Origin: a virus
Lineage: Duplodnaviria > Heunggongvirae > Uroviricota > Caudoviricetes
Virus record (IMG/VR): IMGVR_UViG_2654587772_000002
Strand: one strand, 5' to 3'
Length of the DNA: 64,000 bases
In this document: in pieces, positions 321-60,956 of the stretch
Position numbering within the stretch: position 1 is the first letter of the stretch
Layout of the letters: every line of letters begins with the position of its first letter
Translations under genes and position numbers: made by a program
The notes under the pieces: generated by a model
Databases searched by the model: none
The model's input: the letters and a program-made list of their open reading frames with translations, nothing else
Told to the model about the DNA's origin: nothing

Positions 321-321
321 G

Positions 322-1778: not shown

Positions 1779-1782
1779 ATGT

Positions 1783-2640: not shown

Positions 2641-2651
2641 ATTAAAATCAT

Positions 2652-2657
2652 TATAAT
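2652..2657 (+). promoter_or_regulatory. Candidate -10 element (TATAAT) for the acetyltransferase moron
   Basis: tataat about 22 nt upstream of ATG at 2679 in AT-rich leader; -35 is weak. Confidence 0.3.
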
Positions 2658-2678
2658 AATTGGGCACATTATTATATT

Positions 2679-4713: not shown

Positions 4714-4722
4714 ATTAATTCC

Positions 4723-5001: not shown

Positions 5002-7901
5002 TAAATAACCTCAGCCATTTGTTGGTCTGTTAATGCTTTATGCCATATTCTGAAATTTCTGATATGACCAAATAAATGACGTAACCCTGCTGTAGTCTGG
5101 CCTCCAATACGGATGGTTGCAGAGTTCTGAATATAGGACCATGTCGTCTTTGTTTCGCTGGATATGCGCCCGTTACTTACTGAGCACGTAGACTGATCTG
5201 ATTTTACACGCATCCCCATAACCATTTTTTCAAGCAATGCGTTTTCGTTTACCCGTCTGTTAGCTCCTCCAATATCGCAATAAGGAAATCCGTCGTAATC
5301 TGCTGAAGAACCGAAGCCAAGAATAATAGCCGCTCCGGTTTGATGACCGCCGGTATCAAAAACACGTGGCGCTGCATTTGGCGTTTTATACCAGTTCTTA
5401 TGTACCTCACAAAGAACCGTAAAAGGAAGATTATAAAGATTATTATTAATTGGAACTGTAACTATATCGCTTGCGCGGGTAGCCGCCGTCGTTCCCGAGA
5501 TAATAAAAGATGATGCACACGAACCATCCTCAACCTGAGGGGTGGACAGATAAATATAGTCTCCAGATATGGTTGCTCCGCCCTGCTTAGGAGAATACTG
5601 TATCTGAGATCCTATTTTTAACTCATCATCAATTGCCTGGATTGTTGCCTCTGCAAAAATCCATCCGGTAGCTTCGTCCTTTCTGACTCTCGCTGTAATC
5701 CTTGAGGCCGCGCCACCTGTCATATTAATTTCAAGCGTTTGTGTATCAATATATGCATCACCAAGAAAAGTTGTTGCACTACCGTCATATTTATCAAAGC
5801 GGATACGTAACCTTACCTGTCGTTCTGTTTTAAAACGACATGAGGTTGTCACGTACTTGTTATCGCCTGAAACATCAACTGACTTTGTAGCAGCAATTGA
5901 TGCCATATTAATGGCTGACGTTTGCCCAATCAGAGAATCGTTACAGACAAACTTTCCATAGGTAAAACCAAAACTATCCGTCCCGGTTTCGGGAACATCC
6001 ATATTTGACGAGCGCCCCCAACTGGCAGGGTTTTCCGAATTGAGCATGTAGTTTGTTCGTTGTCCCTCAATAAGCAGACCATCACGTTCAAATCGTGGCT
6101 CGTCAATGGCAGCCTCTGTCAGCACACCAGATTTATTTATATAGGTTGCTTTCGATGCGCGTTTAAACTTAACAACCTTGTCGCCAGGCATTGTTATTTC
6201 GTCGTCGCCAATAACAATCTTTTTATATGATGGAGAAAAGCCCGCAATCATATCCAGCGAATCGTTAAACGGTATCCACACATCTGGCAGCGGTTGAATA
6301 ATCTTCCTGGCATCCTCCAGTGACAATGCTTCGACATCCGAAGCTGTTAAAGAAATATCTGCCGAACCGTCAAATGAAACGTTGTTAATCATCCGTGCTG
6401 TTTTTAATTTCGTTGCGGTGTCGGCGTTCCCCATCAGTGCGCCGGTGATCCCGCCGTTGAAAGTCTGGCGTGCACTCCATGTGTTAGCCGTGCTCAACAG
6501 GGGGATCTTTTCACCGCTTGTGCCGAGTTCTCTTAAACCAAGGTATTGGATAACAGCAAGGACGCTTGTTTTGGACAGAATATCGCGACCGACTGACGTT
6601 AAGTCAGTCTGAGAAACAGTGTCTGTACCGGTAAAGTACGGCAGTTTATTTGCGCCTGTAGCAAGACCAGCAAGCGCGGTTAAAGTTGCATCCAGAGGCT
6701 GTTTGCCTGCCAGCGCATTTGTCATTGTTGTCGCAAAGTTCGGGTCATTACCAAGTGCTGCGGCAAGCTCATTCAGGGTATCAAGAGCTTCTGGTGATGA
6801 ACCAACCAATGCGGATATGGCAGCTCTTACATAAGCAGTCGTAGCAATCTGCGTATTATTTGTGCCCTGCGCAGCCGTAGGCGCAGTAGGGACTCCCGTT
6901 AATGCAGGGCTTGCCAAAGGCGCTTTGAGGGCTAGGGCATTGTTGATAGTTGTGCTGAAATTCGGGTCGTTATTGATCGCAGCAGCTATTTCTTTAAGCG
7001 TATCCAGTGTGCCAGGTGCACCGTTGATAAGTGCCGTTATAGCTGACTTAACAAAGGCTGTATTTGCGATCTGCGTGCTATTTGTACCTTGCGCTGCCGT
7101 CGGCGCGGTTGGCGTTCCTGTCAGACTCGGGCTTTCTATTGGCGCTTTGGTATCAGCAAGACCTTTTACAGACTTAACGGCTTTAGGGGTAGCCGCCATT
7201 GTTTCGCTGTCGCTGTTAGTTTCGCTACTGAGCTGAACTAATCCCTTTTGCGTTGTGCTTGCATCCTGTGCCGTATACTTGCTTTTCGCCAGATCGTAGG
7301 CTTTTTTAGCTGCCAGCGAACTTGCAGCAACATCACTTCTGCTACTGGTTACAGAGTCTGAAATATCAATGCCGATCGTGCGGTTAATACGCTCGGATGT
7401 ATCAATCATCTCCTGGGTAATGGCTGATACGCCAGCAGGGATATTCACCGTACAAACAAGCAGCTCTCCATCTCCTAACTGATATGAATCGGTATAGGTT
7501 CTGGCAACAAATTCAGCCGCATGAATATGTGACGCGGTATTAACCTGATAGGTATCCTCTCCAAGGAGGTATCTTCCCTTCAGCACAATTGCATATTTCT
7601 TGCCTTCACTAAGTGCAAGAGAAATATCCTTACGGTGCCGAATAGTTACCTGGTAGAATTCACCAATATCCACTGACGCAGCGCCAGCAGTTTTATCACC
7701 ATCCACTGAGGTGATTAACAGGTTCATACCACCGCCAGGCTTCGGCAGGAAACCGGCATAAAACCCAGGATCAACAATTCCCCTGAATTTTCGGTTTAGC
7801 GCGGCTGACAGATATGGTTCGTGGTATTGCACATCAGCCACCAGAGCCAGTGACTCGGGCGATGGGTAAGTAACTGATGTAACAACTGTAACGTCATTCA
7901 T
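5001..7901 (-). CDS. Tail fibre protein with Stf-type collagen-like repeats and a distinct C-terminal (lectin/LamG-like?) receptor-binding domain
   Basis: Repeated PL(A/D)SPxLTG(T/V)PTAPTAAQGTNxTQIA(N/T)TA(F/Y)V units and GLVQLSSETNSDSETMAATPKAVK as in lambda Stf; start set at internal ATG (MNDVTVV) just after the upstream stop; ORF-track start 7988 overlaps the previous gene. Confidence 0.8.
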   Translation of the reverse strand: MNDVTVVTSVTYPSPESLALVADVQYHEPYLSAALNRKFRGIVDPGFYAGFLPKPGGGMNLLITSVDGDKTAGAASVDIGEFYQVTIRHRKDISLALSEGKKYAIVLKGRYLLGEDTYQVNTASHIHAAEFVARTYTDSYQLGDGELLVCTVNIPAGVSAITQEMIDTSERINRTIGIDISDSVTSSRSDVAASSLAAKKAYDLAKSKYTAQDASTTQKGLVQLSSETNSDSETMAATPKAVKSVKGLADTKAPIESPSLTGTPTAPTAAQGTNSTQIANTAFVKSAITALINGAPGTLDTLKEIAAAINNDPNFSTTINNALALKAPLASPALTGVPTAPTAAQGTNNTQIATTAYVRAAISALVGSSPEALDTLNELAAALGNDPNFATTMTNALAGKQPLDATLTALAGLATGANKLPYFTGTDTVSQTDLTSVGRDILSKTSVLAVIQYLGLRELGTSGEKIPLLSTANTWSARQTFNGGITGALMGNADTATKLKTARMINNVSFDGSADISLTASDVEALSLEDARKIIQPLPDVWIPFNDSLDMIAGFSPSYKKIVIGDDEITMPGDKVVKFKRASKATYINKSGVLTEAAIDEPRFERDGLLIEGQRTNYMLNSENPASWGRSSNMDVPETGTDSFGFTYGKFVCNDSLIGQTSAINMASIAATKSVDVSGDNKYVTTSCRFKTERQVRLRIRFDKYDGSATTFLGDAYIDTQTLEINMTGGAASRITARVRKDEATGWIFAEATIQAIDDELKIGSQIQYSPKQGGATISGDYIYLSTPQVEDGSCASSFIISGTTAATRASDIVTVPINNNLYNLPFTVLCEVHKNWYKTPNAAPRVFDTGGHQTGAAIILGFGSSADYDGFPYCDIGGANRRVNENALLEKMVMGMRVKSDQSTCSVSNGRISSETKTTWSYIQNSATIRIGGQTTAGLRHLFGHIRNFRIWHKALTDQQMAEVI

Positions 7902-7912
7902 CAAGCATATCC

Positions 7913-8347
7913 TTATGCTATAGTCGTGTTGATGGCCATAACTGCGGTATATGTTTTTCCCACATACAGCGAGTCTTCCTGAACACAAATAATTGCGATG
8001 GGCTTATTCTCGTTATCCAGAACAACCAGAGTGTTGAATGGATAGTTTTTCCCTTCCTGCAACTGGCTTTGATCAAGGTCCATTCGGACAGTAATTATCC
8101 CGCCAGAGTAGGTTGGGACGAGGTTGATGGTGCAAAATTGACTGGTCAGTTCTGCCAACTCGAAAGTCTTTGGCAGTTCTCCAATGTCATAAGTACCATC
8201 TTCATTTTTGGTAACCAGCGAACTGGTGCCGAAAACGGCCTTGCTGATTAAAAATCGAGAGCCTTTGTTAATGGACGATTCAGCGCGTCGCTGATAGTAA
8301 TAATCCAACAACTGACTCTTATAGAGATTTGTTGAGACGTCAGACAT
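7913..8347 (-). CDS. Hypothetical virion-associated protein
   Basis: 144-aa ORF in co-directional operon immediately upstream of the tail fibre. Confidence 0.4.
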   Translation of the reverse strand: MSDVSTNLYKSQLLDYYYQRRAESSINKGSRFLISKAVFGTSSLVTKNEDGTYDIGELPKTFELAELTSQFCTINLVPTYSGGIITVRMDLDQSQLQEGKNYPFNTLVVLDNENKPIAIICVQEDSLYVGKTYTAVMAINTTIA

Positions 8348-8425
8348 GATTTTCCCTAATCAATGTTGTGAAGCCTCATTGTAAGAGAAGTAACTTGTCA
8401 CCCCGCCCTGCGGACGGGGTAATTG

Positions 8426-9265
8426 TCAGGCATCGCTATCCAGCAGCAAATCATCTGCGCGGGAGCGATCAAACGTAGGCGTTGCTTTCACAATAGTGCC
8501 GCCCGGCGTTGCAGTGATCGGGGCACTAATCGACGTAACTCCGGCAAGCGAAGTTGTATCCGAAGTTTCAAACCAGCAGTACGCTTTTTCGGTATCAGAA
8601 ATCTCGTTCAAAGTGATCATGTCGGCCTGTTCATTTACAACAACCGACAAATAGAGCGTAAGCCCATCAAACACTATATGCAGTGGCAGTAGAGGCTTTA
8701 CGAACTGATTAAACTTTCTGAGAATTTCTTCTGTAATTGCGGACTGATCTATCGTGCCAGTAATACCCATTGTCCTGGCCAGGTCGTTTATGGGAATACT
8801 GATCATCCCTCTGGAAGTCAGAAACATCTCGCCGAATGTGCCGCCAGTAGTCTCCAGTGTGCTTTCTGGTATTAGAACTGTGCCATAGGGATGACGCTCA
8901 AGGTCCACCGGTGCATATATCGGATCCCATAAAACAGAAATACCGTTAAATTCGCGGTAAATTGTCTGGTTTATAGGACGTTCAGTTCCCTTAAAGTGGA
9001 TCTCATCAAGCCGCTGTTGTAACAACATCGGAACGGAAGATGAGTTCGAGGTTCTGATAGTAAAGAACTGGCCAAGTTCATTTGTCCTGGTCTCCAGATC
9101 CTCCTTGCTCATGGAGAAAATAGACTTCCGGTTGGTAATTCGCTCCAACCATGGGTCAACAAAGGTGTCCATCATTGACTGAACCAAATCAGCCAATGAT
9201 TTATAGAGCAATGACTTTTGCTTAGCTGATGTAAGCCGGTTATTAAACCAGGAACGCTGCATCAC
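8426..9265 (-). CDS. Hypothetical virion-associated protein
   Basis: 279-aa ORF; 4-nt start/stop overlap with upstream gene. Confidence 0.4.
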   Translation of the reverse strand: MMQRSWFNNRLTSAKQKSLLYKSLADLVQSMMDTFVDPWLERITNRKSIFSMSKEDLETRTNELGQFFTIRTSNSSSVPMLLQQRLDEIHFKGTERPINQTIYREFNGISVLWDPIYAPVDLERHPYGTVLIPESTLETTGGTFGEMFLTSRGMISIPINDLARTMGITGTIDQSAITEEILRKFNQFVKPLLPLHIVFDGLTLYLSVVVNEQADMITLNEISDTEKAYCWFETSDTTSLAGVTSISAPITATPGGTIVKATPTFDRSRADDLLLDSDA

Positions 9266-10695
9266 TCCTCCTCATACGAAATATTAAAGGTGGAGCTTTC
9301 TGTATCCAGATAAACGAAATCGTAAAAGCCGTTGGACTCATTCCACTCGACAAATTCCAGATAAAAGTCGCGGAAATAACCCAGCGTTTCGATAAACGCC
9401 CAAACGTCTTTTTTCTTAATCAGGATGTACTTTCCGACGCGGTTCGGATCAAAGAAAGTTGAGTCGCGCCCAAATTTTGTTTCCAGTGCCGACTTCAGCT
9501 CATCGGTCACATTCTCAATGGTCAGGCTTGCCGATATCCGTCCGGTGATGGTTATCTTAAATGGTAGTTTTCTGACCTCTTTATAAGAGAATTTCTTGTT
9601 CAGTTCATTCGGTACCTTCTTAAAGGCAGTCAGGATCATTTCTTCAAGCTCTGACTGGCTTTTATTTGGATGCCATCCTGAAATAAATATCTTATTGATA
9701 TTCTGAACATTATAAGCACCATCTAATTTCTCTTGCTGGCCTTCGCCCCATGCCTTTACCCAGGACAGCCCCGGGATGTTACGAACCAGAAAATACGTAT
9801 AGTCCCCGCCCCATACGACCTGATCATCATAGGCAAGGTAATATTGTGCACGGTTACGTGTGATCTCCGTTGTTTCAGCATCGGTACCTGCGGTTATAGG
9901 TGTCGTTGTCTTAACTGAAATCAAATTAGCTAAATCAGCCGCAGAATCGACAGGCGTCAGGTTTTGGCCAGCAACCAGGGTTATATCGCCGTTGGTGCAC
10001 CATACCTTAAGCGTAATTGTCGAACCTTCTGGCGGTATTTGCCCAATTAGCCCATCGCCGAATCGAACCCCCAACTGCTCGGATGGTTTATAAAACTCAA
10101 CGTAGACCTGGCTTTTACTACCGGCTAACCGGAACATAGTGCTGGAAGACCACTGCGTGGTCTTCCCATCGGTTGTCACGAATACTTCCAGCTTATAGCA
10201 GACAGCAGTAAGAGCCTTTGATAACACGACTTCCAGAAATTCTTTGGCTGCCGTAACGGTATATGTCACCTCCTGGATTTCCAACTGTGCCACTTCTACC
10301 GTACCGGTGCCGTCAACCAACCTGCATACATCCATAGTCATGTAAGGGTACTGGTCGTCAGATATTAAAGGCATGTTTTTGGGGATTACCGCTGGGGCAT
10401 CTTCACTTGTGGCGGTGATCTCAATCATCCCCGATGACGGTGTTGGCTTGGTACCAACATAACTGTTCGTTTCTGCCGCAGCCAGGATAGAGGAACGCCG
10501 CGTCGCGGTCGATATAAAGCCTTCAGCCAGCGCCGCATCGGCATACTGAAAGCACCTGTAGACAATCTGGGTAATAAACAATGTCAGCATCGAGACAAAT
10601 TGAGAGCCGACAAACTTCGACCAGAATGAATCTTTCTCGACAAGCTCTTCAAACTCTGCACGAATACTGTCTTTAGTCGGTGTTGTTTTACTCAT
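9262..10695 (-). CDS. Hypothetical virion-associated protein (477 aa)
   Basis: Long clean ORF, 4-nt overlaps with both neighbours (translational coupling). Confidence 0.4.
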   Translation of the reverse strand: MSKTTPTKDSIRAEFEELVEKDSFWSKFVGSQFVSMLTLFITQIVYRCFQYADAALAEGFISTATRRSSILAAAETNSYVGTKPTPSSGMIEITATSEDAPAVIPKNMPLISDDQYPYMTMDVCRLVDGTGTVEVAQLEIQEVTYTVTAAKEFLEVVLSKALTAVCYKLEVFVTTDGKTTQWSSSTMFRLAGSKSQVYVEFYKPSEQLGVRFGDGLIGQIPPEGSTITLKVWCTNGDITLVAGQNLTPVDSAADLANLISVKTTTPITAGTDAETTEITRNRAQYYLAYDDQVVWGGDYTYFLVRNIPGLSWVKAWGEGQQEKLDGAYNVQNINKIFISGWHPNKSQSELEEMILTAFKKVPNELNKKFSYKEVRKLPFKITITGRISASLTIENVTDELKSALETKFGRDSTFFDPNRVGKYILIKKKDVWAFIETLGYFRDFYLEFVEWNESNGFYDFVYLDTESSTFNISYEEE

Positions 10696-11051
10696 AGCAC
10701 CACGTCCTGTGTGATAGTTATATCCCTGATACGAATGGATATTTTCAACTTATCAAAAGCATCTCCCTCGGCTACTGACAAGCCAGAAATCGGTATGTCA
10801 GGTAAATCTACCGTCAGTTTTTGCAACAGCATTGCCTCAACCGCAATTTGAACATGCGACAAGTTGGTCGGTTCGTGTTTAAACTGCGGTAAAACATTGC
10901 CCCATGACGGATCTCCGTATACCTCACCCTGATAAGTGTTTAGCCACTCATATAAACGAGCGCCCCAGGCCTCCTCCTGGGACTCATACGTTTTTACGCC
11001 GGATAACTCCAGCGTCAGCAAAGGATCAATTTCGTTATTGTTGGCCATCAA
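10692..11051 (-). CDS. Hypothetical small virion protein (119 aa); baseplate gp25/GpW-like is a weak possibility
   Basis: Size and loose pattern resemblance only; not confirmed. Confidence 0.35.
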   Translation of the reverse strand: MMANNNEIDPLLTLELSGVKTYESQEEAWGARLYEWLNTYQGEVYGDPSWGNVLPQFKHEPTNLSHVQIAVEAMLLQKLTVDLPDIPISGLSVAEGDAFDKLKISIRIRDITITQDVVL

Positions 11052-14000
11052 TCAACTCTCGCGTAGTCATTCATCAACGGATCATCAATTGACAGTGGCA
11101 CCGTGCGCATAACGCCCGGTTGAGGCGTGCTGACCTTTACGACAGTTCCCTGGCCTTTCGCCGAGTCTTTAGTGTGCTCTTCAATCCTGGCAAGCAATGA
11201 GGTCATCTGCGCAAACAGCCGCTTCGTTTCACCATCAAGTGAAACGGTATTATCAGCCAACTGCATTGTCGGCTTGGCACCAGAGCCGCCAAGGTCACTA
11301 ATAACCTGTCCGTCTATCTGCATACGACCGGTTGGTTGCTGCAAATCGTTGGCGGCAGTCGTCACCTGGGACGTGGAGGCTGGTTGAGGAGAGTTATTTG
11401 AGCGCATTCCCCGGGCATTAATGAGTTTGTCATACAGCCCATCAATCCCCATTTGTGCACCGAGTTGGTCAAAGTAACTTGAGTTGTTTGCTACCGGACG
11501 TGCCTCTTCAACTGGCATAGGTGTATCAACATACACATTGCCAGCAGCCGTTGCGGTTCCCCTTCCTCGTGCACGTTCTTCGAGGGTTCCCTGAACGACT
11601 TCCCGACGCATCCCCCGACCATTCATGAATTTGTTGACCAGATCGTTAACGCCAACAGCATTACCGATTTTGTCTACCAAACCGCCTTTCTCAAACGGGC
11701 TATCACCAGGGGTAAACGCCAGACCAGTAGACTGATCGATAACGGCGTTATCAGGCAGTGGTCCCCTCACTCCATATTGCGCCCCACCCTGTGCTCCTGC
11801 TCCAGGTGTATAGATTTCACCACCTAAATAGCGAGCACGATGAGTATTGACCTTGATCGCGTACTCACGGTTTTCTTTCGATAAGTCACCTGTGCCTTTT
11901 TTCCACTTATTGATAGTGCCAAACCCAGCATTATATGCAGTGATGGCCTCGTTTAAGTCTCCATTGGCTTGCTTCAGATACTTGCTCATGAGAAGAGCCG
12001 CAGCTTCTGCCGATTTCACAGGATCAAATGCATCCTGTTCCGATATCCCTGTCTCTTTACGAGCAATACTCGTGAACTGGAACATCCCGAGTGCGCCACC
12101 ACTTAACTTTCCATCTGGTGATCTTGTAAGCGGAGACTTTGCGTTAGGATCCCCTCCTGATTCAGTTGCCGCAATCGAGTAAAGAGTGCCTTCAGGAAGG
12201 CCATATTTATTCTCTAGTTCAGCAAAATACGGAGCCAGCTTATCCAGATTTGCCTTACCTTCAGCGCCAAGGCTTCCGACTTTTACATCTAAGTTGCCAT
12301 TGTTGTAGGTATCCGCAGCTTTCTGAATGTCATTCCTAGTGCCAGTAGTATTAAGCGACGATGATGATGAGCTATTTTGACCAATAGCATTATCAATTTT
12401 CTGCAACGCTCGATTGCCCGTTTCTACGGCATTTGCATTGATAATCTGATTGGCAGTTTCTTTAACTGTTTTATTGCTATCTTTCGCCGTCTCTAGGGAT
12501 GCATTTACAACACGAGTGACAATATTAGCCTTTTTAGGGGTATATTCAGTCTTAGGAGCATTGTCCTCCTGACTTTCTTTAGCTGGTGTTTTTAATTCAG
12601 GTGTAACCTCTTTCGCATCCGCTTTGTTGACTAGCTTTGATGCAACCCAGGCCACAGGGGTGCTCTGAACAGCGGCATCGGCAACCTTACCAGGAAGCTC
12701 TTTTGCGGCATTCCATAGATTACTACCAGCCTCTTTAATGTATTTTCCCGGGTTCTTAATGAAATCAATTGCACTATCAATTGCATCACTGAAAACCTTT
12801 TTCAGGTTATCGACAGTAAAGAAGTCTTTGATGGCGTCTAATTTTTCGTTCAGACTCTTGGTTGTGTCACTGAACCAGGCTGAAATAGCATCGCCAATCT
12901 TGGCTGTGTAATCGTTGAATGTTGTGGATATGGTGTCACCAAGGTTAGAAATATATGTTTCTAAATTGGTAATCCCACTATCAATGGCCTGGGCAATACT
13001 TTCCGTCGAAAATGATTGCAACATATTGCCGATATCCTCAAATCCAAGTGATTTGAGAACGCCACCAATGGCATTGCTAATACCAGATACCAGTCCTCCC
13101 ATATCGAGAACGTTAGCCAGTGTATAAGCCGCTTTTTGCTGAAAAGATGGATCTTCCCCATCCTTAAGCCCAAAGGTCCGACGTTGTGCTTCTGTATCAT
13201 TCCAACCGGTTACCGCATCATAGATACCTCCAGCCACCGTGCCGACTAGCGGAATTGCGCGTAAAGCCCCCTTTGCAAAAGCCTTAACACCTAGTTTCTC
13301 CAATCCCTTAGTTGCAAGTTTTCCGGCACCGCGAGTAGCCAATTCGCCAGCTTCTTTGGCAGCAGCTTTTTTCCCACCAAAGCCCAATAAGCTTGCAACT
13401 TTTTTTATACCTAAAGCGCCTAGTGCCATCGAGCCAACTTTCTTTAGTGCCCCACGGCAAAAAATAAGGGAAGCAATACCACCGGCCCCCTTCCCTAACA
13501 GGCTAAATAATTTGGACAGCAAGCCGCCCTTCTTTTTCCCGGTGTTTTTGGCTATCTGATCAAGGGCGCTGAGAATCTTGTCATTGCCCTCTTTAATTTC
13601 GCTGGTCTGATCCTGAAGTTCCTGAACCGTCCGTTTTTGGGTGTTAACCTGAACGACATCGGCACTACTTTGCGATTTACGCCTAAAAAAACCTTTTCTA
13701 CGGCTGTTATCGTCATTGCCACGAATCACATCGGCAATTGACTTTCTGGCACCATTAAGCGAACCGCCAACTTCTTTTGATATTCCGCCAAGCTCCTTTC
13801 CTGCTGCCCACAATGGACCAGCAACGGCATAACCTAAAGCATCGACGGCACGAGTCTCTGAAGGGTTACCTATGCCTTCAGCTACTTTTGACAGTTTTTT
13901 TAATAAACCCGATTCAGCATTTAGACGCTCATCATCCTCTTTGCGCCTAGCTTTTTCAGCACGTTCAGCACGGGCATCTTCCGCTGCGGCCTTACTCCCT

Positions 14001-14476
14001 GACTTCCCAATAAAACGACCACGCGCATCGCGTTGGTTTTGGCTTTTTTGCGCACCGCCTTTTTGACCGAACATTTCGCGAGCGTGTTCGGCTGCTTCGG
14101 TCCGTTGTGCCTTTACATCCTCTGGTATAGCCTTCCTGCGTCGTTTTTTACCCTTTGGTGTGGTTGATTTGGCCCGCTGTTCCTGTTGAGCAACATCTTC
14201 CTGAACTACACGAGAAACGTCCCCTAAGTTAAGCCGTTTCATTGCCTCAACAATAGGGTCCACTGATGGCGCATTGGCCACAAAGTCTGGCCGTGAATTT
14301 TCGATTGTGCGATTTAATGCCGACACACTGCGAGAGACAGGATCAACAGTTGCAACGCGCCCCCCTTTCAAATCTTCAACAGCTTCCCGGATACCTGCAA
14401 GCTCTTCCAGCTCTTTTGCGCTGGCGGTTTCAACTGTCCTTATAACATCGTCAATGTTGGCGTTTTTTCGTTCCAT
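11048..14476 (-). CDS. Large virion/ejection-type protein with internal lytic transglycosylase (SLT) domain
   Basis: 1142 aa; N-terminal charged coiled-coil, Gly-zipper hydrophobic stretch (GKGAGGIASLIF..GALGIKKVASLLGFGG), SLT motif region (ATESGGDP...GALGMFQFTSIARKETG...AYNAGFG), C-terminal repeated G(V/I)(N/D)xL(V/Y)xK(F/L)(M/I)N(G/A)RGMR motifs. Confidence 0.6.
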   Translation of the reverse strand: MERKNANIDDVIRTVETASAKELEELAGIREAVEDLKGGRVATVDPVSRSVSALNRTIENSRPDFVANAPSVDPIVEAMKRLNLGDVSRVVQEDVAQQEQRAKSTTPKGKKRRRKAIPEDVKAQRTEAAEHAREMFGQKGGAQKSQNQRDARGRFIGKSGSKAAAEDARAERAEKARRKEDDERLNAESGLLKKLSKVAEGIGNPSETRAVDALGYAVAGPLWAAGKELGGISKEVGGSLNGARKSIADVIRGNDDNSRRKGFFRRKSQSSADVVQVNTQKRTVQELQDQTSEIKEGNDKILSALDQIAKNTGKKKGGLLSKLFSLLGKGAGGIASLIFCRGALKKVGSMALGALGIKKVASLLGFGGKKAAAKEAGELATRGAGKLATKGLEKLGVKAFAKGALRAIPLVGTVAGGIYDAVTGWNDTEAQRRTFGLKDGEDPSFQQKAAYTLANVLDMGGLVSGISNAIGGVLKSLGFEDIGNMLQSFSTESIAQAIDSGITNLETYISNLGDTISTTFNDYTAKIGDAISAWFSDTTKSLNEKLDAIKDFFTVDNLKKVFSDAIDSAIDFIKNPGKYIKEAGSNLWNAAKELPGKVADAAVQSTPVAWVASKLVNKADAKEVTPELKTPAKESQEDNAPKTEYTPKKANIVTRVVNASLETAKDSNKTVKETANQIINANAVETGNRALQKIDNAIGQNSSSSSSLNTTGTRNDIQKAADTYNNGNLDVKVGSLGAEGKANLDKLAPYFAELENKYGLPEGTLYSIAATESGGDPNAKSPLTRSPDGKLSGGALGMFQFTSIARKETGISEQDAFDPVKSAEAAALLMSKYLKQANGDLNEAITAYNAGFGTINKWKKGTGDLSKENREYAIKVNTHRARYLGGEIYTPGAGAQGGAQYGVRGPLPDNAVIDQSTGLAFTPGDSPFEKGGLVDKIGNAVGVNDLVNKFMNGRGMRREVVQGTLEERARGRGTATAAGNVYVDTPMPVEEARPVANNSSYFDQLGAQMGIDGLYDKLINARGMRSNNSPQPASTSQVTTAANDLQQPTGRMQIDGQVISDLGGSGAKPTMQLADNTVSLDGETKRLFAQMTSLLARIEEHTKDSAKGQGTVVKVSTPQPGVMRTVPLSIDDPLMNDYARVD

Positions 14477-14557
14477 GATCTTATCGCCTACCGTTTCGGT
14501 TTAAGTTTTTCTTCCAGTTTCTCCAACAGGAAAAACGCATAGGATTCAGTAAGCCTT

Positions 14558-15439
14558 TCAGCGTCCTGAATCGGTATACCCCCATACAAAACCAGGTTGG
14601 ACACTAAGGTCTGATAGCTTTTCAATCCCCACCTGTGGAATGAAGTCGGTAGCCCGAAAGGGCACCCACAGACGGGTATATGCACCCTCTGTGGACTCCT
14701 TTTTATCCTGATTTGGGCATTTATGCGGCGGGAGACGAAGACGCATTTCACCTTTATCGATGTAGCACGGCAAACCATGTTCGAGCTTTTCATGAGCCAG
14801 TCGGATGTGTGCCGCCAGCTTCATAAATTCAGTATCAATGGCCATCCGTTTAATCGTTTCATAACGACGCTCAGCCTGATCTTCACGAGTACCGCTAACA
14901 TCGTTATAAAGCTCACACTGATAAGCGAATTCCCAAAAACGCAAATCAACGATCGCTTCTTTGAATTCCGCGTCGTCTTCAGGTGGCAATGCTGCACGGC
15001 GCATCTCCAGCATTTCCATTGCCCAACCATCAAGCGGCACGATACGCCATTGATAAGGCACTCCCTCTACAGACACCTCAATATCGTCAATGAACGGTTC
15101 CGCTTCCAGGACCTGGATATCTTCAGCCAGGGCATTCATATCGCAATCGTAATAATGCTCTTTACCGCAATGTTTACAGGTGTAGGTGAATGTCTCGACC
15201 GGTGTTTCACGGGAGCCGGTAAATATCCACCATAACGCGGTAATCCGGTCCTGCGCCGTCCATGTCAGGGGATCATGTTTCGCGGGTTCAGCCAGCAAGG
15301 CTTTTAAATACGCCGTTGTCTGTTGTTCTTGTTCCTCCGGTGTTATCGAGTTGAAACGCATCGCATCAGCAATATTTGGCTGACGGAACTGGATCAATTC
15401 AGTTGGCCGCGATGGTAGCGGGAAAAGAGGTAAAAGCAT
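14558..15439 (-). CDS. Hypothetical protein with Cys-rich motif (CKHCGKEHYYDCD)
   Basis: 293-aa ORF in same operon. Confidence 0.4.
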   Translation of the reverse strand: MLLPLFPLPSRPTELIQFRQPNIADAMRFNSITPEEQEQQTTAYLKALLAEPAKHDPLTWTAQDRITALWWIFTGSRETPVETFTYTCKHCGKEHYYDCDMNALAEDIQVLEAEPFIDDIEVSVEGVPYQWRIVPLDGWAMEMLEMRRAALPPEDDAEFKEAIVDLRFWEFAYQCELYNDVSGTREDQAERRYETIKRMAIDTEFMKLAAHIRLAHEKLEHGLPCYIDKGEMRLRLPPHKCPNQDKKESTEGAYTRLWVPFRATDFIPQVGIEKLSDLSVQPGFVWGYTDSGR

Positions 15440-15453
15440 CCTTGCTCCTTAAT

Positions 15454-16065
15454 TCAAAGAGAAAAGCTAAAGCCCAGAAGGGAAGCCAAAGAACTTGAGG
15501 ATTGGTTAAACGTGCTGTGCAATGCGAAGGTCATTGGGAATGACTTAAATTCCGTAACCTGATCCCGCGCATAGGTGACATCTCCGGTAGTGACCGGGAA
15601 TACCGTCATCTCATTTTCCAGTTTGGTTAAACCGGAGGACAGCAACCGATAAATACGCACATTGAGCAAATATTTAGATGGTATGTTCCCGGTGCCGTCA
15701 GGATTGATCACCCGACTTTTTGCCGTCTTAAACCAGTCCAAAACGAGGCCATCAACGGTATCCCTGACCATCATTGTTATCTGCCCTGGCGAACGCTCCG
15801 TTGGCTGAAGGATATTCCCTCCGCCGATTTTAATCGTTTCATATTCGATGCTGTAATCGTGGTAGGTAATGTCTTTAGCAAAGAAGTCTGCCCCCTCCAG
15901 ACCATCAACTTCGACAGAGAACTGCCATCCTTGCGCGAACAGCATTTTGTTCATGATGATTGACGTCAGCTTACCAACTTCCCGTTCACCAACGCCGGAG
16001 CCAAATAATGTCGTCGTTAATGCCGAAGATACATAAGACTTTACTGAAGCAACATTAAGCCCCAT
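15454..16065 (-). CDS. Hypothetical virion-associated protein (203 aa)
   Basis: Clean ORF in operon; no family recognised. Confidence 0.4.
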   Translation of the reverse strand: MGLNVASVKSYVSSALTTTLFGSGVGEREVGKLTSIIMNKMLFAQGWQFSVEVDGLEGADFFAKDITYHDYSIEYETIKIGGGNILQPTERSPGQITMMVRDTVDGLVLDWFKTAKSRVINPDGTGNIPSKYLLNVRIYRLLSSGLTKLENEMTVFPVTTGDVTYARDQVTEFKSFPMTFALHSTFNQSSSSLASLLGFSFSL

Positions 16066-16075
16066 ATCAGCCCCC

Positions 16076-16666
<591 letters not shown>

Positions 16667-17000
16667 TTAACCGATTCTACGAGTAGTCATTTGTTCATCG
16701 TGTAACAATATTGCCATTGGATAAAATAACTACAGCGCCCACAAACGGGCGCATTCTGTACATGACTTGAGATATATTATGTTGCATTAAAGCTTTTCAA
16801 ATGATAATCAGCCAAGCCTTTCGCAATTATCGGCATAGTATTTTGTTGCATTTACTATTATTGACTCATAATACGATTTGCATTCTTTCTTCCATGGAGT
16901 GCACGAATTTATTTTTTCCATATCGTTTTTATTTTTAGAAATACCAACAAGCATAATGTACCCGATAAATCTTGTTGTCAACGCGCCAATCGGTAGCGTT

Positions 17001-17288
17001 CTATTCTCGGCTACTGTCTTTTATTAAATTATCTTTATATTGAGGAATGAAATAGTTACCAACATATTCCAGATTTGCTTCAATAGGATTAAGATAGAAT
17101 GAGCAATACTGAAAAGTGGGAATTTGTCTAAATTTAACACCAGAACATAATGAATAAATTTCTTGTTCTTTTGTTAGTTCTTTTACTATGTGACTGTTGT
17201 CAGTCGTATCTTCTAATCTTATATAGTTCAAAGACGATTTTGCTTGTCCTGGGCTTACAAGCTCAATAACAGGATGCCCATTAGACAA
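17001..17288 (-). CDS. Hypothetical protein in AT-rich insert
   Basis: 95-aa ORF in low-GC DNA that interrupts lom. Confidence 0.3.
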   Translation of the reverse strand: MSNGHPVIELVSPGQAKSSLNYIRLEDTTDNSHIVKELTKEQEIYSLCSGVKFRQIPTFQYCSFYLNPIEANLEYVGNYFIPQYKDNLIKDSSRE

Positions 17289-17338
17289 TGTTATTCTTTC
17301 GATCTTACCCCGAATTCTAGAAGTTTGACTCCATTCAT

Positions 17339-17572
17339 CTAGGCTGCTATTTCATTTTTCTTGAATGAATCAACAATATCTGATGGCAAGCTAAAAACAG
17401 TAGCTTTCGTATTCATAGTATATGCAAGCGAAGCAGATACCATATAGTTTCTGACTAAATTATAGTCCTTCTCGGAAACAGAATACTCATTAGGAATAGC
17501 TATTGAATTTGCAAATGAATAGCTGCTAACAAAAGCAAACGGCAACAATAGTTTAAACATTAATTTTTTCAC
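17339..17572 (-). CDS. Small secreted protein (Sec signal peptide)
   Basis: MKKLMFKLLLPFAFVSSYSFA-NS: n-, h- and c-regions with AxA-like cleavage site; AT-rich. Confidence 0.35.
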   Translation of the reverse strand: MKKLMFKLLLPFAFVSSYSFANSIAIPNEYSVSEKDYNLVRNYMVSASLAYTMNTKATVFSLPSDIVDSFKKNEIAA

Positions 17573-17601
17573 TTATCACTATCCTTCGAATATCTTTACA
17601 T

Positions 17602-17787
17602 TTAAAGCCCGTCTTTGCAGAGACTAGTTGCTGTAGCGGTAAGTTGTGAAACAGGAATGTTAGGGCTGTCCCGTTTCTGAAGATACCCGGCGCTTAGTGT
17701 GGACTGATGCTCTGCTGCGCTCGCTGGCGTACCAGCGGCAACCAGCCAGACTACTGCGGACAGAATAACAGCACATAATTTACGCAT
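17602..17787 (-). pseudogene. lom: lom (outer membrane protein) N-terminal fragment, truncated at the AT-rich insert
   Basis: MRKLCAVILSAVVWLVAAGTPASAAEHQSTLSAGYLQ matches lambda Lom N-terminus; ORF ends after 61 codons where the sequence turns AT-rich. Confidence 0.7.
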
Positions 17788-17854: not shown

Positions 17855-20800
17855 TCAGCTGATACTGATGCCTGCGGTGGCTTTCTTCATCACCACAACC
17901 AGCAAATCGCTGATACTTGCTGTGGGATACCAGCCATTTACCCACCATGCTGATACCGAAAACTCCAGTGTCATTACGCCACTGCCTGCAGGCATATCAA
18001 TAACACCCGTGTAAATCAGAGTATTATCCAGAGCCGTTCGGTTATAAATTTCAGCCCCGTTTTTCTTCACTATCAGGCGGCATGACGAATAAGTATCGCT
18101 ATTCTCCCGTTCATGTCTGGCACCGCTGAAAGCCACCGCCGGGATAACAATTTGCCGGTCAAACGGCTGATCGTCATAAACCCTGACGGTAATGGTCCCT
18201 GATGGCCACCGTTCCGGTGCACGGGAGTCACGGGGGAAAGCTTTGCCCACTGTTTTAACGAGATCGCCTTCAATCTGGTTCGCGGACAGTTTTCCCAGAA
18301 CCCGGCAGTTCTCGTTAATCGTGACGTTGTTGAGCGTCCCGGAGTTCGCATTCACGTTACCGCTGATATCGGCATTTTTTGCCGTCAGCCGCCCGTCCGG
18401 TGTCAGGGAAAATGCCGGAGGATTACCGCCGCTGGTAATGGTGGGAGCCGTCAGATATTTCAGGAACACTTCATTCATAAATATCTGATCGCCCTGACCA
18501 ACAAACATCGGCTTTGTGTTGCCATTCGCAGGATTAATCATCGCAATCCTGTCCGCCGCCAGCAGCACCTGACTCTGCATACCGTCAGGGGTATTCTCAA
18601 TACCGGCACCAATACCCGCGATATAAAGGCGTCCGTCCTGCATCTGCTGCAGCTTCACAGCCCACATGCTGTTCAGGTTATTATTTGTATCAACCTGAAC
18701 CTTCTGTATCTGCTGAATTGCCGCACTCTGGTCTTCCAGTTTCTTATTGACGGTCTGCGTGATTTCATTGCTGACATCCGTAATGGACGTCCTGATTTCA
18801 GCCAGGTCAGGCGCAAGCTGACCGTTATCAATCTGCGTCCACAGCTCCTGAGCCAGATGGCTTTTCCCTATCTCTCCTTTGAAAAAATCCAGATAGCCGG
18901 ATGCATCATCACTCGGCTGGCCAACAGCCTCCACAAATGCCGATTTGCCAACGGTGTTCACACTGCGGATGTAAAAATAATAATCATGGCCCGGTTTGAT
19001 ATTGATACTGGCGGCTATCCAGTACAGCGCCGTGCCAAGATAGCGGGCTGTGGTTTCAACCTGCCTGATATCGGTAATCCGCTTTTCCGAGAACCAGAAC
19101 TCAAACTGTACCGTCGGGTCATAAATGGCAAGATGCGGCGTGGCGGTTATCTGAAAATAGCCCGGCGTCAGCTCAATCCTCGACGGTGCTGCCGGTGCGG
19201 CAATCCGGAACGATACCGACGCCGCATCGCCCTGCTGCCCCACGCATTTACCGCCCGGACTGTCAGCCTGTAGTTCCCCAGCGCCAGTTGCGTGAAGCGG
19301 TATGTGGTTTCCGTCGTCCGGGCCGTGCTGACCAGCCGCTCACTGCCGTCGTCCGCTGTTACGGTCAGACGGAGCAGGAAGCTCACGCCCTTCACCACCT
19401 TCGGTGTGTCCCATCGCGCCAGCACCTGATATTCCCCGCTGTCTGCAGTGACTTCTGCGGTCAGGTGCTGCACCGCTGGCGGCGTGACACCATTCACCGT
19501 GCCACTCTGTTCGCCGTCAAAGTGCGCCCCGTTATCCACGATGGCCTCTTTTTCCGGCACATGCTGCACGGCGGTGATGGCATACGTGCCGTCGTCGTTC
19601 TCACGGATACTCACGCAGCGGAACAGGCGCTGGCGCAGCGTCGGCAGCTTCAGCCCCCATACGCTGTATTCAGCAACACCCTCAGGAACACGGCTCACTT
19701 TTACCTTCACGCCGTCGTTGACGGACTGAACCTCCACGCTGACCGGATTGCCACTTCCGTCAACCAGGCTTATCAGCGTGGTACCGGAGGATGGCAGCGT
19801 GATTTCACGGTCGAGCGTCAGCGTCCGGGTCTGGCTGTTCACCGCCAGCACACGACCACCGGTGCTGATACCGGCATAGTCATCATCGCAGATTTCAATA
19901 ACATCGCCCGGTACATGGCGAAGCCCTTCTGCGCCGACGCTGAAATCCACGGTCTGCGTCTCCAGCAGCTCCGTTTTAATCAGCCACAGCCCGGCGCGGT
20001 GTGCCTGCCCCCGGCTGGTACAGCCAAAGGCATCCATCTTCGTAACATTACGACCGTAACGGGCAATGGCCTGCGTATCTTCAACAAGCTCTGTCGCCGT
20101 CTCCCAGCCGTTGTCCGGGTCAATCCAGTTCACCTCAACGGCATTATGGCGGTCTTTCAGGGCGCTGAAGCTGTAGCGGAACGGCGCGCCATCATCCGGC
20201 ATCACCACATTACTGCGGTTATAGGTCCACGCCTTATCCGACGGTCGGTCCTGCACGAACGTCAGCGTCTGCCCGTTCCATACCGGCATACAGCGCATCG
20301 CCGAGCAGAAATCACTGAGAACGTCCCACGCCTTGCGCTGTGTGGTCAGGTACGCATTACAGGTGATGCGCGGCTCCGTGCCGCCAAAGCCGTCCGGCAC
20401 TGACTGGTCGCAGTACTGGCCGATGACATACAGCGCCCATTTGTCCACATCCGCCGCACCAAGACGTTTCCCCATGCCGTAGCGCGGATGGGTCAGCATA
20501 TCCCACAGACACCAGGCCATGTTGTTGCTGTATGCTGGCTTAAACGTTCCGTCCCAGATACCGCTGTATTGTCGCGTCTGCGGGTTATAGTTCGACGGCA
20601 CCTGCAGAATGCGCCCGCGAAGATGATAATTACGACTCACCTGCTGGCTGCCGAACTGCTCCGAGTCCACCTGTACGCCGACCAGTGCCGTGTTCGGGTA
20701 GCACTGTTTCACATCGATGATTTCGGTGTATGACGACCAGAGCGTTTTGTTCTGCAGCTGGTCTGTGGTGCTGTCCGGCGTCATCCTGCGCATCCGGATA

Positions 20801-21333
20801 TTAAACGGGCGCGGCGGCAGGTTATCCACCACCACCGAGGCCAGATACTGCGAGGTGGTTTTGCCTTTAATGGTGATGTCTTTTTCCGTCACCCAGCCAC
20901 CGTTACGCTGTATCTGAACCAGCAGGCGGACTTCCGACGGATTCCGGTCCCCCTTTGAGGTGGTTTCCACCAGTGCCTGCACACCGAAGGTAAAGCGCAG
21001 ACGGTCGATGTTTGCAGACGTGATGGTCCGGGTAATCGGCGTGTCGTACTTCACTTCCGTACCCAGCACCGTCTCGGAGCCGGAGGATTCAAACCCCTCC
21101 GGCGGTGTCTGCTCCTGCTCACCGGCACGGAACACCACCGTGACACCGGAGATGTTGGTATTCCCCTCAGTGTCCAGCACCGGCGTACTGTTCAGCAGCA
21201 CGCTTTTTAATCCATCCACCGGACCTTCAACCGGCCCTTCGCTGATGGCATCGATCACACTCAGCAACTGCGTGGACTTCAGGTTGTCCTTCGCTTCGCG
21301 CGGGGTATGCCCCTTACTGCTTCCTTTACTCAT
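17855..21333 (-). pseudogene. J: Tail tip / host specificity protein J, split into two ORFs by a 1-nt frameshift in a GGGG tract (~19238-19241)
   Basis: N-part (19168..21333) and C-part (17855..19243) both match lambda J; junction ..NAWG|QQGD.. is continuous in lambda; here tggggcagcag lacks one nt. Confidence 0.8.
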
Positions 21334-23748: not shown

Positions 23749-26700
23749 TTAACATTCCCCCATCACGTCGCATATTTAACAGATTGCCCTGCACCCGCTG
23801 ATCAACCATCCCCATAAGTGCTTTTATTGCCTGAGGGCCAATCTCTCCATTCTGGCCGTCATTTTGAATAGTGATTTGGTATACAGGGGCATAGGTAATA
23901 TCTCCGCCTCCATTACCACTTTTACTATTAATAGCTCTGACACCAAGAGAACCATCGGAAGTTCGTGTTAATGGCATAATGGCTTCCGGACCAGCCTCAC
24001 CAAAAACACCAGCCCCTCTTGCAAAAGCAAAAAATTGCGGGGAATCATAAATACCGTTCGAATACGTGTTCAATGACGGAGACTCATAAACACCGCCCTT
24101 TGCATTCGGAATAAATTTACTAATAGCACTCCCGATAGTTCCTAAAATCCCCCCAGAAGAACTGTTACTAATGCTGTCGAAAATCCCAGTAATTGAAGCC
24201 TTTAATGCTATTCGACTAAGATCCGAAATCACGGAAGTAGCGAAAGAACGAAAATTTGCCTTGCCTGTCGTGACAAAATCACCCAGCGCATCGGTCATTC
24301 CATCAAACATCTGAGTCGTGGTTGATTTTATCTGCTCACTGATATCCTTAGTGTCATCCAGCCAGTTATTGAATCCCTGGGAGGCACCACTAACCCAGTC
24401 TCCTGCCTGAATATCGAGCTGCTCGTTTTTCTGTCTGACAATTTCTTTTTCTCGTTCCAGAGCATCATTCAGAGCCTGCATTTTCTCCTGAAAAACATGA
24501 TTTGACATCCCACGGGATTTATCTGCATAGTCACGTTCAAGTTGCAGACGCTGATTGTTATATTCACGTTCAATCCGCAGTAATTCCTGCTGGCGTTGCT
24601 GATTTTTATCGCCAACCCCATAACCAGCAATCTGAATATCATACCCCTGTTGACGATTATCAATCGAAGCCTGCAATGAATCACGCCATGCAGCTATTTC
24701 GGCGGATTCCTTGATTAGCCTGTTATTTTTTTCAATCGCAACATTTTTCTCCATCAACGCGGTTATTTCTTCCAGGTGTAAGAGAAGCGATTTCTGATCC
24801 TGGGTTAATTTCGATGACGGTCGTGACTCCAGGTCGGCAATCTGCTGACGCCACTTAACCAGTTCCTGTTCAGAGGAACTTAATTTAACGGTTAATTCAG
24901 TTTGTGAACTTAGTAACGCATTCTGTTGATTCAGATGATCAATCATTCGTTGGGCAGCATCATCCGAATAACCTTTCGCCTTTGGTTGCTTTGGATCTTT
25001 ATAACGCTCATTTATTTGAGCGATAAAATTATTATATTCTTCCTTTGAATACTGACTCTTTAGCTTTTCCAGTTTTGCAAGTTCACTAGCTCTCTGCTGC
25101 TCCCGGGTCTGATATTGTTTTGAAAAGGCATCTGCTCTCTGTCTGAGTTCAATTCCTTCCTGTTGTCGCTTGTTGTAATCGTTTATTGATGAATTTAGGA
25201 CGTCCTGAGCAATTTTTTCTGCTTGAAGTACGCCCAATTGCTGCTTTAATCGTGCCAGCCTTTTATTTTGAGCTCCGCCATCTCCAATGCCACCTAACCC
25301 GAAAACTCCGGGTCGGGTATTTTTTTCTATTTCATCAATTTGACGGAGAACATCTGAGATTTTTTGATCAAGGGAGGCCTCACGGCCAATGTCCAGCATG
25401 GAATCCCATGCCCATTTTGCGGAGTCTGCGACAGCTTTCCATGCAGTCTCAAGATAACCAAGATTTTCTTTAATCTGGTTGGTGCGCTGGATCATTGAGG
25501 ATGAGTATTCTTCTGTCGCAATGCGGGCGGCCTCCTGCTGGTTCCCTTCATCCTGTAGCGCCTTAATCTGGTTATAAGTCGCAAGTGTCAGAAAATGGTA
25601 CTGATCATTAAGTTTTGATATGGCACTGACAGGATCCTTTGCAATTTCATTGAAGTCATTAACCAGTTGTTCGGTTGATATTCCTGTTACTTCGCTCGTT
25701 TTTACTATCGCTGTCGTCACTTGCTCCAGCGAACTGCTCGCTACCTTTCCCGAACGCACAAGCTGATTTAATACTGCCGCCGCAGCACCAGTTGTCGAAT
25801 CAGCCGCATTCCCGGCACGTTGAGCTATATCGCCCAATTGCCCGCTGGTTGTCCCCAACTGATTTCCGGTAAGAATAAGAGATTTATTAAATTCGTCCTG
25901 CTCCTGAGAGCCTTTATAGTAAGCCAGTCCTAAGACCCCAACGGCTGCTGCGGCCAGGGTAAAAGGATTAATTAATCCCAGCACATAAGAACCTACACCT
26001 TTGATCGCCGGGCCAATCCCACCGAACATATCTTTTAGCTGGCCGCCCTGCTGCATTAACACCATAAATGGCGACTGACCAGTGGACAACCCAACAACAA
26101 TATCCGTCATTTGTGCAGGCAACATGCGCATAGCAAAAGCCGTTTGTTTTGCCGACATTCCGGTTTTGCTTAATTGTGATTGAGTAACCTCAAGCTCACT
26201 CCGCATAGCACGAAGTTTTCCAGAAAGCTCCTCATACATTTCAGGAGAAAGCATCCCCTTAGCTTTTGCTTCATTGAGCTGTTTCTGTTGTTCTACCAGA
26301 CGATTAAAAGCAGTTCCGACAGGATCAAGTTGAGCAATCAGACGTTGCAAAGCAACAACCTGTTCATCATGCGCTTTTGCTGCTTCTCGCTCTGCCTGAG
26401 CCTCTCCGGTAAGCTCTCGCCGTGTTTCCTGTATTTTTCGGCTATAATTCTCAAACTGAGAACCATTTATTTTCCCGGATGCAAACGCAGCATTAAGTTC
26501 ATCATGCTGTTGTTCAAGATTTCTTAGCGCCGCAGCCAGAGGGTCGATCTTGTCCAGCATTCTTTGAAAGGCCTGAGCCTGCGCTTCCTGCTGGGCGGCA
26601 GCAAGTTTTCCGGCCTTCTCGGCTTCTCTCTGCGCTTGCGCAACCCCGCTCAATTCCTCTGTGGTTTCATTAAGTTTACGGACAAGAAATTCATATTCTT

Positions 26701-26974
26701 CTTTATCAATAAGCCCTTTATCGAAAAATTTCTTTAATTCAGAATAGCGTCGACCGACAGTATCAATTGCGGCACCAACTGGATCAATAGCTGCTTTTAA
26801 TTTTGCGAGCGCGTTCTTCTCATCTTCTGTTGCCTTAGTCACTTTCCCTGCGCTATTTGCAGCAGTTTCCCCAGCCTGCGTCATTTTGACTAATGAGGAG
26901 GTCAGATTGTCAGCATTATTTTTCGCTCCAGTGCTATCAATAATTATTGCGAGACGCGAGGTTTGCTCTGCCAT
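23741..26974 (-). CDS. H: Tail tape measure protein (lambda H-like)
   Basis: 1077 aa, extended coiled-coil, hydrophobic central segment, C-terminus like lambda H. Confidence 0.85.
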
Positions 26975-27139
26975 TTATTAAAACTCCTGACAACAAAAAA
27001 CCCACCGCGAAGTGGGTTTCAGGCGACATAATAGTAGATATAGCGATTACGAGGCCACGCAATGCTTTTCTCCAGGAGCATCATCGATTTAATTAAAGAC
27101 ACCATCACATCTCTGTAACAGAGTGTACGTAATTAACAA

Positions 27140-27459
27140 CTACACACACTGCTCCTGAAAATACTGGTCATCCAGTGCAAAGATCACTGCTTCAAATTCA
27201 TCGCGCTCAATCAATACCGGATGAGTGGCTAAATATTCATTTATCTCTGTCAGAGATAAAGGCAAAGGCACCCCAGCCATTCCAGCATAACGTCGGGCAC
27301 GGGATATTACCGAATAGGCGTACAACAACTCCTTAAGCACCGGGTCTATTTCTGGTTCCGGTATCGGTGGCAACCTGAGTTTTTCTCGCTTCCATCTTGC
27401 CTTTTCCCCCCTTTCTCCCCCGAACTCCGATAACCACCGCTGGGCAGCTATGGCTTTTT
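27140..27459 (-). CDS. T: T extension of the GT frameshift product (-1 frame relative to G)
   Basis: -1 frame is open from the AAAAAAG heptamer at the end of G through to 27140; no canonical ATG (ORF track starts it at TTG). Confidence 0.55.
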
Positions 27460-27909
27460 TATCGTATCCTGCTTCTGCTGCTCTTTACCCTGGGCGATGC
27501 TGGCTGCTTCTGCAAGGATCTGCCAGTACAACTCTGGATTCTGCTTAAGCAGCGCGATCCCTCGTTCTGCCGTATATTCCAGTGCAACCTCAACACCATT
27601 AACCAGTTCACCAACCCCTTTCCAGTCTTTCAGCAGATAACGAGCGGCATTATCAATGAGTAAATCATCAACAGAATCCACCTCGGAAACCTTTGAAATA
27701 TCAAACTCCTTCGTTCCGACGTGCAAACTGGCATCCATTTTCTCAATGTGGCGACGGATTAATGCATTACGGGAGCGATACTGATCGTTATCGCTGCTTG
27801 CCACCAACAGTTTTAACCCGTCTACAGGTTTTAAGTCCTTCATTGGCGTAAACCAGCGTTCTCCACCAATGATAATTTTCTGATTAAGAATAAACATCCA
27901 TAACCTCAT
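27448..27909 (-). CDS. G: Tail assembly chaperone G
   Basis: 153-aa ORF between major tail protein and tape measure; ends just after an A-AAA-AAG heptamer. Confidence 0.7.
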   Translation of the reverse strand: MRLWMFILNQKIIIGGERWFTPMKDLKPVDGLKLLVASSDNDQYRSRNALIRRHIEKMDASLHVGTKEFDISKVSEVDSVDDLLIDNAARYLLKDWKGVGELVNGVEVALEYTAERGIALLKQNPELYWQILAEAASIAQGKEQQKQDTIKKP

Positions 27910-27957
27910 TCAATGCGTCCCCCTGTAGGGCAGTACCACAGGAGGAATAACGGAAAA

Positions 27958-28920
27958 TCAACTAATCGCCTCAGCACTGGCTTTTGCGATCACGGCAGCC
28001 GGGGAATTTTTTTTTCTGGTTATCGTAGGTGCTTCATCTGCTGCGGTAATGCTCAATTGAACCTGGATAATGTCGCTATTACCCCCATCAGGCCATTCAC
28101 CTGACACCTGAACCTTCGGGAAACTGAAAGTGTATGCCCCCTCTCCATTCGAAAGCGTGAAGCTGAACGGAACTGTTTCTCCAGTCAGTGTTTTACTCCA
28201 GATTTCCCACGCGGCTTTAGACCATGAAAGCGTCACCGTACCGGACGGTGTAAAAGTAGTCGGAATATTTGCTCCTGCATAAGGCGAGCCAGTCCCGATA
28301 CAACGCTGTGTCTGGAGTTTGTTATCGAACTGAATATCAAAACTGTCGATACAAAAACCGTTACCTCCGGCAACACCATTCAGGCTTACTGCTGAAACCT
28401 CCTTAAACGAATAACGTAGCTTTCCTGCACTATCCACAGGTTCGCCTTTGATAAAATTCGTATCATCGGCCTTTGATTCCCAGTCCAGTCCGGCAAAGGT
28501 TACGGTCGCTGTAATATCGCCGTCGTTAGGGATCTGCATTTTCCATGAGCCAACCTGCGCTCCTCTGACGACAGAGGCAATTCCGACATCGGACGCATAG
28601 GTCGCCAGAGAAAATGTTATTCGCTCATTCCCCATTGTCAGAGAATCGCCTGACCATTCCGCGCCGAAACAGGATGCAAGAAAATCATCATGTTGACCCC
28701 AGCGAAATTTGGTACCAACATCACCGCCGACATCCACAGTGCCAGGCGTCGCCCCCTGAGCCATCCGGGAGCCACCAATCTCATTATTTTCGCCTTTATT
28801 ATGGGTGGGTTTTACTCCCCAGCTTGTGCGTTTTAATAAACTCCAGTCACCACTTGCTGGCGTAGTGCCTGCAACCGTCTCCCGGATAAATGCCGAGATA
28901 ACCTTTGCACCTGAACTCAC
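27958..28920 (-). CDS. V: Major tail (tube) protein with probable C-terminal Ig-like domain
   Basis: 320 aa, position directly upstream of G/GT; Thr/Ser/Gly-rich beta-type composition. Confidence 0.7.
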   Translation of the reverse strand: MSSGAKVISAFIRETVAGTTPASGDWSLLKRTSWGVKPTHNKGENNEIGGSRMAQGATPGTVDVGGDVGTKFRWGQHDDFLASCFGAEWSGDSLTMGNERITFSLATYASDVGIASVVRGAQVGSWKMQIPNDGDITATVTFAGLDWESKADDTNFIKGEPVDSAGKLRYSFKEVSAVSLNGVAGGNGFCIDSFDIQFDNKLQTQRCIGTGSPYAGANIPTTFTPSGTVTLSWSKAAWEIWSKTLTGETVPFSFTLSNGEGAYTFSFPKVQVSGEWPDGGNSDIIQVQLSITAADEAPTITRKKNSPAAVIAKASAEAIS

Positions 28921-60945: not shown

Positions 60946-60956
60946 GGAAGGACACA

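Follow-up and report, generated by a model that had tools for sequence, protein, structure and literature searches.

The tail-tip gene J of a full-length Rac-type prophage of E. coli, present as two overlapping ORFs in the window (i.e. the whole stretch of 64,000 nucleotides that was analysed, from IMG/VR record IMGVR_UViG_2654587772_000002), is very probably split by a homopolymer consensus (base-calling) error and not by biology, judging from comparison with related sequences. The real DNA would then have five Gs where the window has four, together with an intact J of 1,159 aa, one G having been under-called in the assembly. This reading is based on the presence of the five Gs in both sister assemblies of the same strain, on the private homopolymer-length differences between these assemblies and on the low-coverage, unpolished PacBio C2 sequencing published for this strain. 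Taken at face value, the split J would lead to a full-length, apparently complete Rac-type prophage being labelled as tail-defective, with J as a pseudogene. The relevance is one of annotation hygiene only, and a real deletion would amount to no more than an ordinary inactivating mutation, here of a prophage tail gene.

One J gene in two reading frames

The site is defined by two ORFs and a short homopolymer, all on the minus strand:
19168–21333, minus strand: N-terminal part of J, a 721-aa ORF with the Pfam domains FNIII-A_GpJ, Phage-tail_3 and Ig_J
17855–19243, minus strand: C-terminal part of J, a 462-aa ORF with the Pfam domains Ig_J_second, Phage_Tail_Tip and Ig_GpJ_C
19238–19241, minus strand: GGGG tract (CCCC on the plus strand), which is GGGGG in relatives; position of the missing base splitting J

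An earlier note on this DNA had reported two J ORFs overlapping by 76 nt and jointly forming a lambda-type J, on which coordinates and Pfam domains agree, the overlap being exactly 76 nt (19168–19243) and the six J domains all scoring above the Pfam cut-offs, in the right order and three per ORF. As predicted from these domains, the break separates two Ig-like domains belonging to the same J protein, and the 462-aa ORF corresponds to the putative second Ig-like domain, tail tip fibre and receptor-binding domain of J. The same six Pfam domains are arranged in the same order in lambda gpJ (tip attachment or host specificity protein J), as found in full-length E. coli Rac-type prophages. In addition, lambda J DNA is about 96% identical to the window over a 601-nt region and the lambda-type gene order L-K-I-J-lom is the same in the window, which differs from lambda in its J frame broken by the missing G and in its truncated lom followed by P1-like DNA. 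The prophage itself is of the Rac type, not lambda.

On the minus strand, the J junction reads GTAAATGCGTGGGGCAGCAGGGCGATGCG. The last 26 codons of the 721-aa ORF are out-of-frame read-through down to a stop at 19168, while the frame of the 462-aa ORF, after (V), is the continuation of lambda J; the GTG "start" of the latter is merely the first start codon retained by the ORF finder and does not speak for separate translation. J of the window is consequently devoid of a single continuous frame, the expectation for a J-type protein being about 1,130–1,160 aa. At the tract, the window has TGGGGCAG versus TGGGGGCAG in lambda (J02459), phage mEp332 and E. coli CP031215 and CP027546. That one extra nucleotide is needed at the GGGG, as initially proposed, is borne out by the relatives, which have G5, and by the effect of the added G, which restores one J: a single 1,159-aa ORF is obtained, identical to the annotated J of E. 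coli ST2747 CP007394.1 and with 2 aa different from J of strain FDAARGOS_1279. Comparison with orthologous J genes, which the earlier note had suggested, likewise gives G5 in lambda, mEp332, CP007393.1, CP007394.1 and FDAARGOS_1279. Besides, a 405-aa ORF is present antisense to J (window 19186–20403, plus strand).

Rac-type prophage and its join to P1-like DNA

From 17677 to 64000, the window consists of a full-length Rac-type prophage adjoining ttcA, with the Rac genes intR, xisR, ralR, recT, recE, kilR, sieB, racR and ydaS/T, as well as lysis genes, trkG, terminase, head and tail genes, L, K, I and J. From 1 to 17677, it consists of P1-like plasmid prophage DNA. The two parts meet as follows:
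17670–17684, no strand assigned: join (17677) between Rac, in a truncated lom, and P1-like DNA, as defined by alignment ends

Rac alignments to CP007393/4 and FDAARGOS_1279 begin at 17677, where P1-like alignments stop, and the Rac DNA of the window breaks off about 110 nt into lom, 1,561 nt away from the G tract of J. The claim of otherwise intact structural genes therefore stands for the head and tail genes but not for the prophage as a whole, which is cut inside lom at 17677 with P1-like DNA beyond. In CP007393.1, the same odd Rac-P1 arrangement is encountered, except that the two parts meet in stfR, some 1 kb beyond the position seen in the window. CP007394.1 exhibits a normal Rac right end, namely J, lom, stfR, tfa, pinR, ydfK, uspF and ompN, its junction with P1-like DNA being located instead in the tail tube gene of Rac (window 28244). 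Since three assemblies of one strain display three different Rac/P1 joins, the join at 17677 is most likely a scaffold concatenation and not a real integration.

In the P1-like part, a 1,587-nt stretch (4933–6519) within a tail fibre gene (ORF 5001–7988) is absent from CP007393.1, where this gene is annotated as two partial pieces. No flanking repeats explaining the absence of the segment were found, and it could result from an assembly collapse in this sister assembly or reflect a variable tail-fibre segment. Inside Rac, a cargo cluster (46718–50217) encodes a 463-aa ATP-binding protein, a 330-aa O-methyltransferase and, on the opposite strand to these two, a 383-aa DNA cytosine-5 methyltransferase. 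With PADLOC, the ATP-binding protein and the O-methyltransferase have no defence-system match, and the methyltransferase is the only gene of the cluster to be recognized, as MTase_II (E = 2e-98).

Sister assemblies and the wider distribution of the allele

By far the best matches to the window are the RefSeq records CP007393.1 and CP007394.1, both from E. coli strain ST2747; from 56000 to 64000, the window is identical to both. The ST2747 genomes, deposited as CP007392, CP007393 and CP007394, are those of one parent and two in-vitro nitrofurantoin-resistant derivatives, isolated after three platings (PMC3983296). For each strain, one PacBio RS II SMRT cell (C2 chemistry) provided about 28x coverage, and assembly was by HGAP with no short-read polishing; the scaffolds, about 14 per strain, were then put in order with the help of an in-silico map from another strain and concatenated to give a "complete gapless chromosome" (PMC3983296). 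We infer that the window was drawn from one of these three assemblies, most likely CP007392.

At the J tract, both CP007393.1 and CP007394.1 have G5. Over the 46.3 kb of Rac DNA plus the P1-like part, the isolated differences between the window and CP007393.1 are limited to five homopolymers, each longer or shorter by 1 nt, with no isolated substitution anywhere:
19238–41: in J
22359: in K
about 28016: in the tail tube gene
45241: in the DUF1133 gene
4672: in the P1-like part (T6 in the window, T7 in CP007393.1)

One messy patch of 170 nt adds to these differences at 17978–18143, in the C-terminal end of J, which in CP007393.1 is made of dense small indels and mismatches and results in an over-long J (3,543 nt) in RefSeq. 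As CP007394.1 is identical to the window over this patch and FDAARGOS_1279 nearly so, with only two edge substitutions (18140 and 18143), the patch is an error of CP007393.1. Respecting CP007394.1, the 10.5 kb compared contain no substitution; the 11 gaps are all of one base in homopolymers, and ten of them fall within 26036–28015, beside the join of this assembly at 28244. Wherever a three-way comparison can be made, the odd one out is always the sequence with the broken ORF, i.e. the window at J, CP007393.1 at K and at the 17978–18143 patch, and CP007394.1 at its ten sites. The length of a T run at 28007–28015, close to the 3' end of the tail tube gene, differs between all three assemblies: T9 in the window (as in FDAARGOS_1279), T10 for CP007393.1 and T8 for CP007394.1. 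RefSeq itself flags frameshifts in K, tail tube, DUF1133 and Lom for CP007393.1, and in the tape measure, tube and ydaY genes for CP007394.1.

In the sister assemblies, private homopolymer changes amount to about 1 per 1–15 kb, and the indel differences gather near the Rac/P1 join of the assembly concerned, at distances of up to about 2.2 kb. A dozen frameshifts with zero substitutions in one prophage would not arise from three platings, and such a pattern is that of homopolymer consensus errors. In the same group of assemblies, where false frameshifts are many, P1-like DNA is stitched into the chromosome at three places, and both features would make gene-content or pseudogene statistics derived from these assemblies misleading. 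In the P1-like part of the window, comparison with an independent P1-like element, MINF_9A plasmid 3 (98% identity), reveals only one homopolymer difference, in an intergenic position (2244; C6 in the window, C7 in the plasmid), and is uninformative as to further private errors of the window.

Outside ST2747, the same prophage is found in an independent strain, FDAARGOS_1279 (CP069957.1), with 19 substitutions relative to the window over 46.3 kb. Setting aside an IS3 insertion proper to FDAARGOS_1279, the J tract is the sole indel between the two over this length. This comparison cuts both ways, as it singles out the J tract as the only anomaly and yet indicates that the local error rate of the window is not high.

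The G4 allele was surveyed with a query of 80 nt centred on the tract, for which a score of at least 99% corresponds to an exact match only. Among 5,426 complete E. coli genomes, the query matched 4,123 records at 7,694 places, none of them with the exact G4 allele; 117 phage records were equally devoid of it, and the exact G4 26-mer is absent from the GTDB representative genomes. Elsewhere, this 26-mer occurs once in IMG/VR and once in a metagenome collection. Aligned with the window, the IMG/VR contig (IMGVR_UViG_2531839454_000013, 9290–14731) requires 122 gap openings over 5.5 kb, and the metagenome contig, with 1.0x coverage, 7 over about 2 kb. Considered as natural G4 alleles, these two sequences are not credible, being indel-ridden or 1x contigs. 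The corresponding G5 27-mer is present in at least 120 IMG/VR contigs and, among the fetched loci containing the site (n = 131), 129 have G5 and 2 have G4. As a side observation, the IMG/VR contig with G4 is a very error-rich prophage contig from an isolate genome, in which J is shredded into many short ORFs.

Readings of the missing base

The features seen at J are those of a consensus error, namely a one-base homopolymer change relative to the relatives and its restriction to one assembly of the strain, while the sister assemblies have an intact G5 at J and private homopolymer errors of their own. The source would be an ST2747 assembly obtained from long reads only, at low coverage with PacBio C2, in which a wrong homopolymer length would be the usual leftover error; such errors would be expected to be commoner where coverage drops near contig ends, and the tract is 1.56 kb from the putative scaffold join. 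Published work on long-read-only bacterial assemblies describes homopolymer-length errors as the commonest residual error (PMC8812927) and as pseudogenising genes (PMC12007338); the J split resembles these errors in being a one-base contraction that fragments a gene. Counting against an error, the window is cleaner than its sisters; unlike these error-rich assemblies, it has only one such change in 46 kb of prophage, which is also its one private indel relative to FDAARGOS_1279.

This good local consensus, with no other private indel in the window over 46 kb, speaks in favour of a genuine deletion, as does the mere fact that the sequence as given carries G4. Under this explanation, which is unlikely, replication slippage would have converted G5 to G4 in one isolate, J would be truncated after the first Ig-like domain, and any Rac particles would be without the central fibre and the receptor-binding domain, and non-infectious. 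Slippage by -1 is commonplace in short G runs, nitrofurantoin is a DNA-damaging agent, and the strains of the likely source study were passaged on it; should the window belong to a derivative selected on nitrofurantoin, it could conceivably carry a private mutation that is real. If it belongs to the parent, however, a real G4 would require two independent reversions, both sister assemblies having G5. Moreover, only a handful of mutations per 5-Mb genome would be expected between the parent and derivatives of three platings (our own estimate), so that the prior for a hit in a 46-kb prophage is of a few percent at most, whereas private homopolymer changes occur at about 1 per 1–15 kb in the sister assemblies. 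G4 is also encountered in no good-quality genome among the complete E. coli genomes, GTDB representatives and phage records. The genuinely tail-defective prophage envisaged in the earlier note, given G5 in both sister assemblies, is then much less likely than an error.

A functional slippery G tract, acting as a programmed frameshift or a phase-variable switch, is highly improbable. Full-length J would be produced by a -1 slip of the ribosome (P-site tRNA-Gly moving from GGC to GGG) or of the RNA polymerase. The geometry fits, as a shift of -1 leads from the upstream frame into the downstream one, and a -1 slip after TGG GGC brings CAG next and would restore ..NAWGQQGD.. exactly; from the arrangement of the codons, a low-level spontaneous rescue of J by a tRNA-Gly slip would be geometrically possible. 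However, the zero frame G TGG GGC AGC includes no X XXY YYZ heptamer and would allow single-tRNA slippage only, and the 106 nt from the site onward have an MFE of -39 kcal/mol against a shuffle mean of -39.7 (z = 0.19), 107 of 200 shuffles folding at least as well. Neither is the two-ORF J conserved (0/4,123 E. coli records and 0/117 phage records) and, while a contingency tract is expected to be variable, G5 is found in 129 of the 131 fetched loci with the site. It is hardly more probable that G4 is real and works as a reversible on/off switch, either because the DNA tract slips between G5 and G4 or because tRNA-Gly slips by -1 on G GGC at a low level; if so, the switch would tune the output of infectious particles from a full-length Rac prophage. 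Of the three readings that had been offered unranked, the homopolymer sequencing error is thus retained and the slippery tract is unsupported, with no heptamer, z = 0.19 and a split that is not conserved.

What a programmed site looks like can be seen in the same tail module, where a canonical -1 site is present:
27460–27454, minus strand: tail chaperone -1 site A AAA AAG, with the ORFs 27448–27909 (minus strand) and 27140–27373 (minus strand)

There, the A AAA AAG heptamer is positioned two codons before the zero-frame stop and the -1 frame extends over about 100 aa, to 27140. Like J, the lambda G/GT system (tail assembly chaperone -1 frameshift) involves overlapping ORFs of the tail cluster and a -1 shift; unlike the chaperone site of the window, J has no heptamer and its overlap is absent from all relatives. 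Programmed frameshifting at J was rejected on these grounds, the heptamer being missing, the downstream fold ordinary and the split unconserved. As for the chaperone itself, the -1 extension is unannotated in the RefSeq relatives examined, where the chaperone ORF is designated as ydaY.
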